Below the pieces are notes generated by a model that saw only the letters and a list, made by a program, of their open reading frames with translations, was not told the origin of the DNA and ran no database searches. From the NCBI GenBank assembly GCA_039698075.1, contig JBDKTJ010000003.1, positions 3,101 through 67,100 on the forward strand: a stretch of 64,000 nt of DNA, read 5' to 3'. The DNA comes from Thermoguttaceae bacterium. Lineage in GTDB: Bacteria; Planctomycetota; Planctomycetia; Pirellulales; Thermoguttaceae. The position numbers were made by a program, and so were the translations under genes. Shown in pieces: positions 26,424-26,522 of the stretch (position 1 is the stretch's first letter; every line of letters begins with the position of its first letter).

Positions 26424-26522
26424 TTAAGTGCGAACCGTGCGACGTTTTGCTCGCCGGCCGCGTGCGTTGGCCGGTCGTTTGCCGTGATTGGCTTTCTTGA
26501 TGATGCGATGGGGCTTCGCCAT
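26424..26522 (-). CDS. 32-aa highly basic micro-protein, possibly a bL37-like ribosomal peptide
   Basis: ATG 26522, with GGAG 8 nt upstream, to TAA 26424. Translation is MAKPHRIIKKANHGKRPANARGRRAKRRTVRT. It lies 26 nt upstream of the FabZ-like gene and is below the length cut-off of the ORF track. Confidence 0.45.
   Translation of the reverse strand: MAKPHRIIKKANHGKRPANARGRRAKRRTVRT

Follow-up and report, generated by a model that had tools for sequence, protein, structure and literature searches.

An overlooked 32-residue gene of the planctomycete bL37 family upstream of a FabZ-like dehydratase gene in a Thermoguttaceae genome

We found that a micro-ORF on the minus strand of a contig from a Thermoguttaceae bacterium is a protein-coding gene that occurs in a single copy and evolves under purifying selection, and that its product belongs to the NCBIfam equivalog family NF047429. 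The ORF is located at 26424..26522 (-), stop codon included, of the analysed window, a stretch of 64,000 nucleotides, and it very probably encodes bL37 of the large ribosomal subunit in its planctomycete form, a peptide of 3.7 kDa with a pI of 12. This assignment is based on the match to NF047429, on orthologues in related genomes, and on substitutions of the coding type. The gene was missed by the annotation owing to its shortness, and its omission also distorts the call of the adjacent gene. Two annotation errors are thus corrected in the window genome, the absence of a ribosomal protein gene and a FabZ-like call that is approximately 49 codons too long. The first of these is an annotation gap in an already known and curated family, and not a new kind of gene.

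When the minus strand is read from 26522 to 26424, a frame from ATG to TAA is obtained whose translation is MAKPHRIIKKANHGKRPANARGRRAKRRTVRT. The peptide contains 5 Lys, 8 Arg, and 2 His residues and no acidic residue, and its computed pI is 12.0. The computed average mass is 3733.4 Da with Met and 3602.2 Da without Met. A Shine-Dalgarno-like GGAG is positioned at 26531..26534 (-) and is followed by an 8-nt spacer to the ATG. Since an in-frame TGA lies six codons 5' of the ATG and no start codon is found in between, this ATG is the sole possible start of the micro-ORF. The initial annotation had described a 32-aa ORF in which 13 of the 32 residues are Lys or Arg, with 2 His in addition and a GGAG 8 nt upstream, and all of these features are present in the sequence. 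Open frames of 32 codons occur frequently by chance in the GC-rich DNA of the window, and the ORF listing contains dozens of them. The case therefore rests on the family match (E = 4.8e-15) and on conservation across genomes.

NF047429.1 ('ribo_Plancto_bL37') is an equivalog model of 32 positions that is described as 50S ribosomal protein bL37 and has a curated cut-off of 40 bits. When we compared the micro-ORF peptide with this model, residues 1-32 aligned to profile positions 1-32 of 32 with 55.6 bits, which places the peptide above the cut-off from end to end and within the planctomycete-type bL37 family. The actinobacterial model NF047428 ('ribo_Myco_bL37') gave 17 bits, below its cut-off of 30, and aligned only residues 9-17 to profile positions 14-22 of 24, so that the peptide is not a member of the actinobacterial type. 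No Pfam family was matched in a search with the peptide. When the entire assembly (3.77 Mb, 189 contigs, 93.6% complete) was scanned in six frames, exactly one NF047429 copy was detected, the micro-ORF itself, at 53.3 bits. Exact look-ups showed that RefSeq uses the name '50S ribosomal protein bL37' for orthologous 32-aa peptides from Blastopirellula (B. sediminis, B. marina, and B. retiformator), Thalassoglobus, and Stratiformator vulcanicus, and that the same peptides are 'hypothetical' in older GenBank and UniProt records. The exact window peptide was not found in a collection of 15 billion proteins. In the searched literature, no paper paired bL37 with Planctomycetes, and bL37 was structurally described from Actinobacteria only. 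The earlier statement that bL37 is known solely from Actinobacteria is therefore correct for structural descriptions in that literature but not for the databases, where NF047429 and the RefSeq names already include planctomycetes.

The bL37 profile matched 66 of 301 sampled Planctomycetota genomes at E <= 1e-3, and 20 genomes scored above the cut-off. The 14 control genomes, which represent other phyla, gave no match. bL37 was detected in 14 of the 15 genomes of one family (f3), and in 5/5, 6/6, and 9/10 genomes of other families. A collection with one genome per species contains at least 293 loci that encode a bL37 relative. The best 80 of these are all from Planctomycetota, with hosts from Pirellulales, Thermoguttaceae, Planctomycetaceae bins, Anatilimnocola, Roseimaritima, and Candidatus Kuenenia, and the closest loci among the 80 belong to Pirellulales and Thermoguttaceae genome bins. 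The window genome belongs to the same order as the genome with the Blastopirellula peptide, and its host is a member of Planctomycetota, as are the hosts covered by NF047429. In addition, a search of 1.84 billion representatives returned 323 clusters, which are given without taxonomy.

When 28 orthologous frames were extracted, their lengths were 29-36 aa, their starts were ATG except for GTG in two, and their stops fell at the same aligned position. GGAG or GAGG is located 5-10 nt upstream in most of the 28 loci. In the alignment of the 21 distinct peptides (alignment A1), M1, A11, N12, H13, G14, R16, and P17 are invariant, and the consensus is MAKxxRKLKKANHGKRPASAKARxxKRxxIKT. In 16 ungapped frames of 96 nt, codon positions 1, 2, and 3 showed 0.27, 0.24, and 0.57 mismatches per site, respectively, and the invariant residues use all available synonymous codons (GCN, AAY, GGN, CGN, and CCN). 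The third-position excess and the variety of synonymous codons indicate that selection acts on the peptide, and not on the DNA or RNA. The ORF and its motif are thus conserved among planctomycetes, with the same start, nearly the same length, and an invariant core, and the proposal that the micro-ORF is a real gene is borne out by the retention of frame and length among relatives together with the coding pattern of substitutions. We also observed that most public gene calls for the family (P0042-P0191) are 44-190 aa long and contain the 32-aa match at their very C-terminus, indicating that gene finders regularly choose a false start upstream of the true one.

The gene downstream of bL37 encodes a FabZ-like hotdog dehydratase of 169 aa (25888..26397, -) with a PF07977 FabA-like domain. 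It starts with a GTG at 26397-26395 (-), and the 26-nt spacer between this start and the end of the bL37 TAA at 26424 (26398..26423, -) carries GAGGAGGAG at 26405-26413. The initial annotation had placed the micro-ORF 26 nt upstream of the FabZ-like gene and had noted the strong Shine-Dalgarno sequence of the latter, and both are found as described. The identification of the downstream gene as a canonical FabZ was rejected, since its scores are far below both equivalog cut-offs (74.6 bits against 113 for NF000582 and 70.8 bits against 155 for TIGR01750); the gene is instead a FabZ-like paralogue with the PF07977 domain. In 72 of 80 related loci (L032-L111), the gene that immediately follows bL37 on the same strand is a homologue of the FabZ-like gene, and the gap between the two is 4-451 nt (median 109 nt). 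This pair of a ribosomal micro-protein gene and a fatty-acid-type dehydratase gene extends from Pirellulales to Candidatus Kuenenia and is not seen in Planctomycetales. A ribosomal protein gene likewise precedes a fatty-acid synthesis gene in the rpmF-plsX-fab operon of E. coli.

Upstream of bL37 lies trpD (anthranilate phosphoribosyltransferase family; 26676..27722, -; PF00591 and PF02885), which occupies this position in 12 of the 80 related loci. The trpD stop and the bL37 start are separated by a 153-nt spacer (26523..26675, -), and a G10-C-G5 run is located within it at 26637-26652 (-). A minus-strand consensus scan of 25700-26900 detected no sigma-70-like promoter and no terminator, and the promoter type of Planctomycetota may differ from this consensus. 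When we inspected metatranscriptome contigs from three wastewater runs of one study, they covered parts of the FabZ-like gene at 25889-26390 with no differences and a part of trpD at 27443-27592 with 3 differences in 150 nt. None of these contigs spans 26424-26522, a gap that weighs neither for nor against expression of bL37. That wastewater habitat thus seems to harbour this organism or a very close strain. We suggest that bL37 and the FabZ-like gene are probably co-transcribed in this genome; bL37 has its own ribosome-binding site.

We then searched all PDB chains with a profile of the planctomycete peptides (alignment A1, built from L001-L028). The matches were mitoribosomal mL102 of Tetrahymena thermophila (6z1p_AQ, E = 1.7e-6), bL37 of M. 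tuberculosis (7kgb_v, E = 1.2e-3), bL37 of M. smegmatis (5o60_3, E = 0.07), and a chain labelled bL37 (8crx_V, E = 5.5), and all of them pass through a (K)KANHG(K/A)RP core. The window peptide alone gave only weak matches, with mL102 at E = 0.39, and the profile search was therefore needed. Neither the peptide nor the profile retrieved a chain of a planctomycete ribosome from the searched copy of the PDB. The M. smegmatis chain 5o60_3 reads ...RKHSKANHGKRPN and the M. tuberculosis chain 7kgb_v ...RKYSKANHGKRPNS, and by comparison with both chains the mycobacterial motif given in the initial annotation is right in its core. The peptide passes NF047429, and its profile retrieves the solved mycobacterial chains. 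Judged from these alignments, the micro-ORF product is a bL37 relative that shares the invariant ANHGxRP core with chains seen in mycobacterial ribosomes. The name bL37 in Planctomycetota appears to derive from the similarity of approximately 9-16 residues to the actinobacterial protein.

Other explanations for the micro-ORF also need to be considered. It might be open by chance, with the 218-aa track ORF (25888-26544) and its long N-terminal extension as the true gene. That longer frame is open in the window genome, and in 12 of 70 relatives no stop interrupts it across the bL37 region, but an in-frame stop blocks the upstream extension in 58 of the 70. In most related loci, the FabZ-like homologue aligns with the GTG-start version from residues 1-3 onward, the Pfam domain begins only at residue 78 of the 218-aa version, the strong GAGGAGGAG stands ahead of the GTG, and the overlapping frame encodes a conserved peptide. 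Because the homologues start at the 26397 GTG and in-frame stops lie upstream of it, the track ORF is 49 codons too long. Its extension (26398..26544, -), which overlaps bL37 in another frame, is spurious, in agreement with the initial annotation, and we consider a chance origin of the micro-ORF the least probable of all the explanations. Scarcely more credible is a leader peptide or regulatory uORF that acts in cis on the FabZ-like gene. Such a function would suit the position of the micro-ORF 26 nt upstream on the same strand and the recurrence of the pair in 72/80 loci. However, a leader peptide is expected at a fixed distance and only together with the gene that it regulates, and the gap to the FabZ-like gene varies between 4 and 451 nt. 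The peptide is equally conserved in Planctomycetales beside unrelated neighbours, namely squalene/phytoene synthase, an acyl-CoA dehydrogenase-like protein, a molybdopterin oxidoreductase, and an ECF sigma factor. Since these neighbours are unrelated, a leader role tied to the FabZ-like gene is excluded, and since they vary by locus, the conservation of bL37 is independent of the downstream gene. The full-length match to a curated protein family also argues against a leader peptide.

It is also conceivable, but improbable in our view, that the product is a conserved basic peptide outside the ribosome, for example a free polycation of the nucleic-acid-binding or antimicrobial-like kind whose likeness to bL37 is confined to the short ANHGxRP motif. 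Only a short stretch resembles structurally proven bL37 (best profile E = 1.2e-3), the actinobacterial model NF047428 is not passed, and the gene is located outside any ribosomal protein operon. In addition, bL37 of C. acnes is antimicrobial as a free peptide (PMC10085706), which would be in line with such a function. Against this, both independent solved carriers of the motif, bL37 and Tetrahymena mL102, are ribosomal. The peptide also lacks a signal sequence, is encoded by one gene copy, and is near-invariant across orders like buried rRNA-binding peptides.

Based on these observations, we favour bL37 as the identity of the product, and we infer its location in the planctomycete ribosome by homology. 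It has been reported that bL37, close to the peptidyl-transferase centre, contacts H39, H40, H72, and H89 (PMC10085706), and that M. smegmatis bL37 stabilises the short loop D of 5S rRNA (PMC12123416). By homology, the planctomycete peptide would be buried in rRNA, in a cavity under the 5S rRNA tip (loop D) near the peptidyl-transferase centre, and its pocket would be bounded by the 23S helices H39-H42, H72, and H89. There it would have a basic filler role and would stabilise this junction. In M. smegmatis, bL37 was likewise missed by annotation, and its deletion showed no growth or translation phenotype (PMC10081302), so that even the known bL37 has no defined role.

We examined the composition of the ribosome around the predicted pocket. 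In the window genome, the genes for uL18, uS5, uL15, and SecY are adjacent on contig C99. The usual slot of uL30 is empty, because the uS5 stop overlaps the uL15 start (L031, G000:C99:2703-5909, 791-1764), and a uL30 domain was not found in the window genome. A uL30 Pfam domain above the cut-off was detected in 0 of 301 sampled Planctomycetota genomes, compared with 13 of 14 control genomes. We rejected a link between the absence of uL30 and the presence of bL37, since uL30 is found in none of the 301 genomes whether or not bL37 was detected. The 5S rRNA of the window genome is 108 nt long (L112, G000:C133, 268-375), compared with the 120-position model, and most of the missing length falls at the helix IV / loop D hairpin tip, with 3 bases in place of 10 model positions. 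The site of this shortening is the part contacted by bL37 in mycobacteria. The 5S rRNAs of bL37-positive genomes are 108-111 nt long, with an extra 115-nt copy in one genome, and those of genomes without detected bL37 are mostly 105-116 nt, with four at 120 nt. A tie between short 5S rRNA and bL37 within the phylum was also rejected, as the association is not clean and short 5S rRNA is general in the sample. The missing uL30 and the short 5S tip fit a remodelled region around the bL37 pocket, and compensation is a possibility. If the placement of bL37 is true, the planctomycete ribosome would be built around a bL37 peptide without uL30 and with a shortened 5S tip. The assignment of bL37 to planctomycete ribosomes appears to come from sequence similarity alone.

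When the window peptide is compared with NF047429 and with Blastopirellula bL37, they are alike in the length of 32 aa, the start, the invariant ANHGxRP core, and the basic C-terminal tail, and the identity to the Blastopirellula peptide is 72%. No substantive difference from the planctomycete bL37s of RefSeq was observed, and the window copy is merely uncalled in its genome. The bL37 pocket is filled in Borrelia by an N-terminal helical extension of uL30, and mammalian mL63 occupies it too (PMC10618245). Both belong to other, larger proteins, and the window peptide showed no sequence similarity to them.

The comparison with actinobacterial bL37 (M. smegmatis MSMEG_1916, M. tuberculosis, and C. 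acnes; PDB 5o60, 7kgb, and 8crx) revealed a common tiny size, strong basicity, a MAK-type start, and a KANHGKRP core in both forms. The actinobacterial protein is 24 aa long, and a basic arm of 14 residues precedes its C-terminal motif (about residues 15-22 of 24). The 32-aa window peptide has neither this length nor this arrangement, and the planctomycete motif is central (residues 11-17 of 32) after a shorter arm of 10 residues. Only the planctomycete form has a conserved Arg/Lys tail of ~15 residues, which ends in IKT or VRT. Furthermore, uL30 is present in Actinobacteria, where the Corynebacterium control was positive, whereas it is absent from the Planctomycetota sample.

Among the solved ribosomal chains, the best match to the planctomycete profile is mL102, ahead of mycobacterial bL37, and a single planctomycete peptide matches it at E = 4e-4. 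The match comprises residues 62-87 of mL102, RNARPPKKANHGARPCSSVMRRLKKK, and the alignment runs from the motif into the basic tail. Accordingly, the planctomycete tail aligns with mL102, whereas actinobacterial bL37 has no counterpart of it. mL102 is located between the central protuberance and the L7/L12 stalk, and its C-terminus reaches the A-site tRNA; the paper on the Tetrahymena mitoribosome makes no mention of bL37 (PMC7326499). Judged from the description in that paper, mL102 lies in the same general part of the ribosome as the bL37 pocket. Its apparent homology to planctomycete bL37, which emerges from the alignments, seems to be unreported in the searched literature. A broader proposal, which we put forward tentatively and hold to be rather doubtful, is that bL37 is an old family and not a peculiarity of Actinobacteria, with a long-tailed form common to Planctomycetota and the ciliate mitoribosome (mL102). 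In this proposal, the basic tail in Planctomycetota would fill the space left by the loss of uL30 and the truncation of 5S loop D, or would reach towards the A-site tRNA like the C-terminus of mL102. For its part, mL102 (6z1p chain AQ) is a nuclear-encoded eukaryotic protein of 109 aa with the motif from residue 65, whereas the planctomycete peptide consists of 32 aa.
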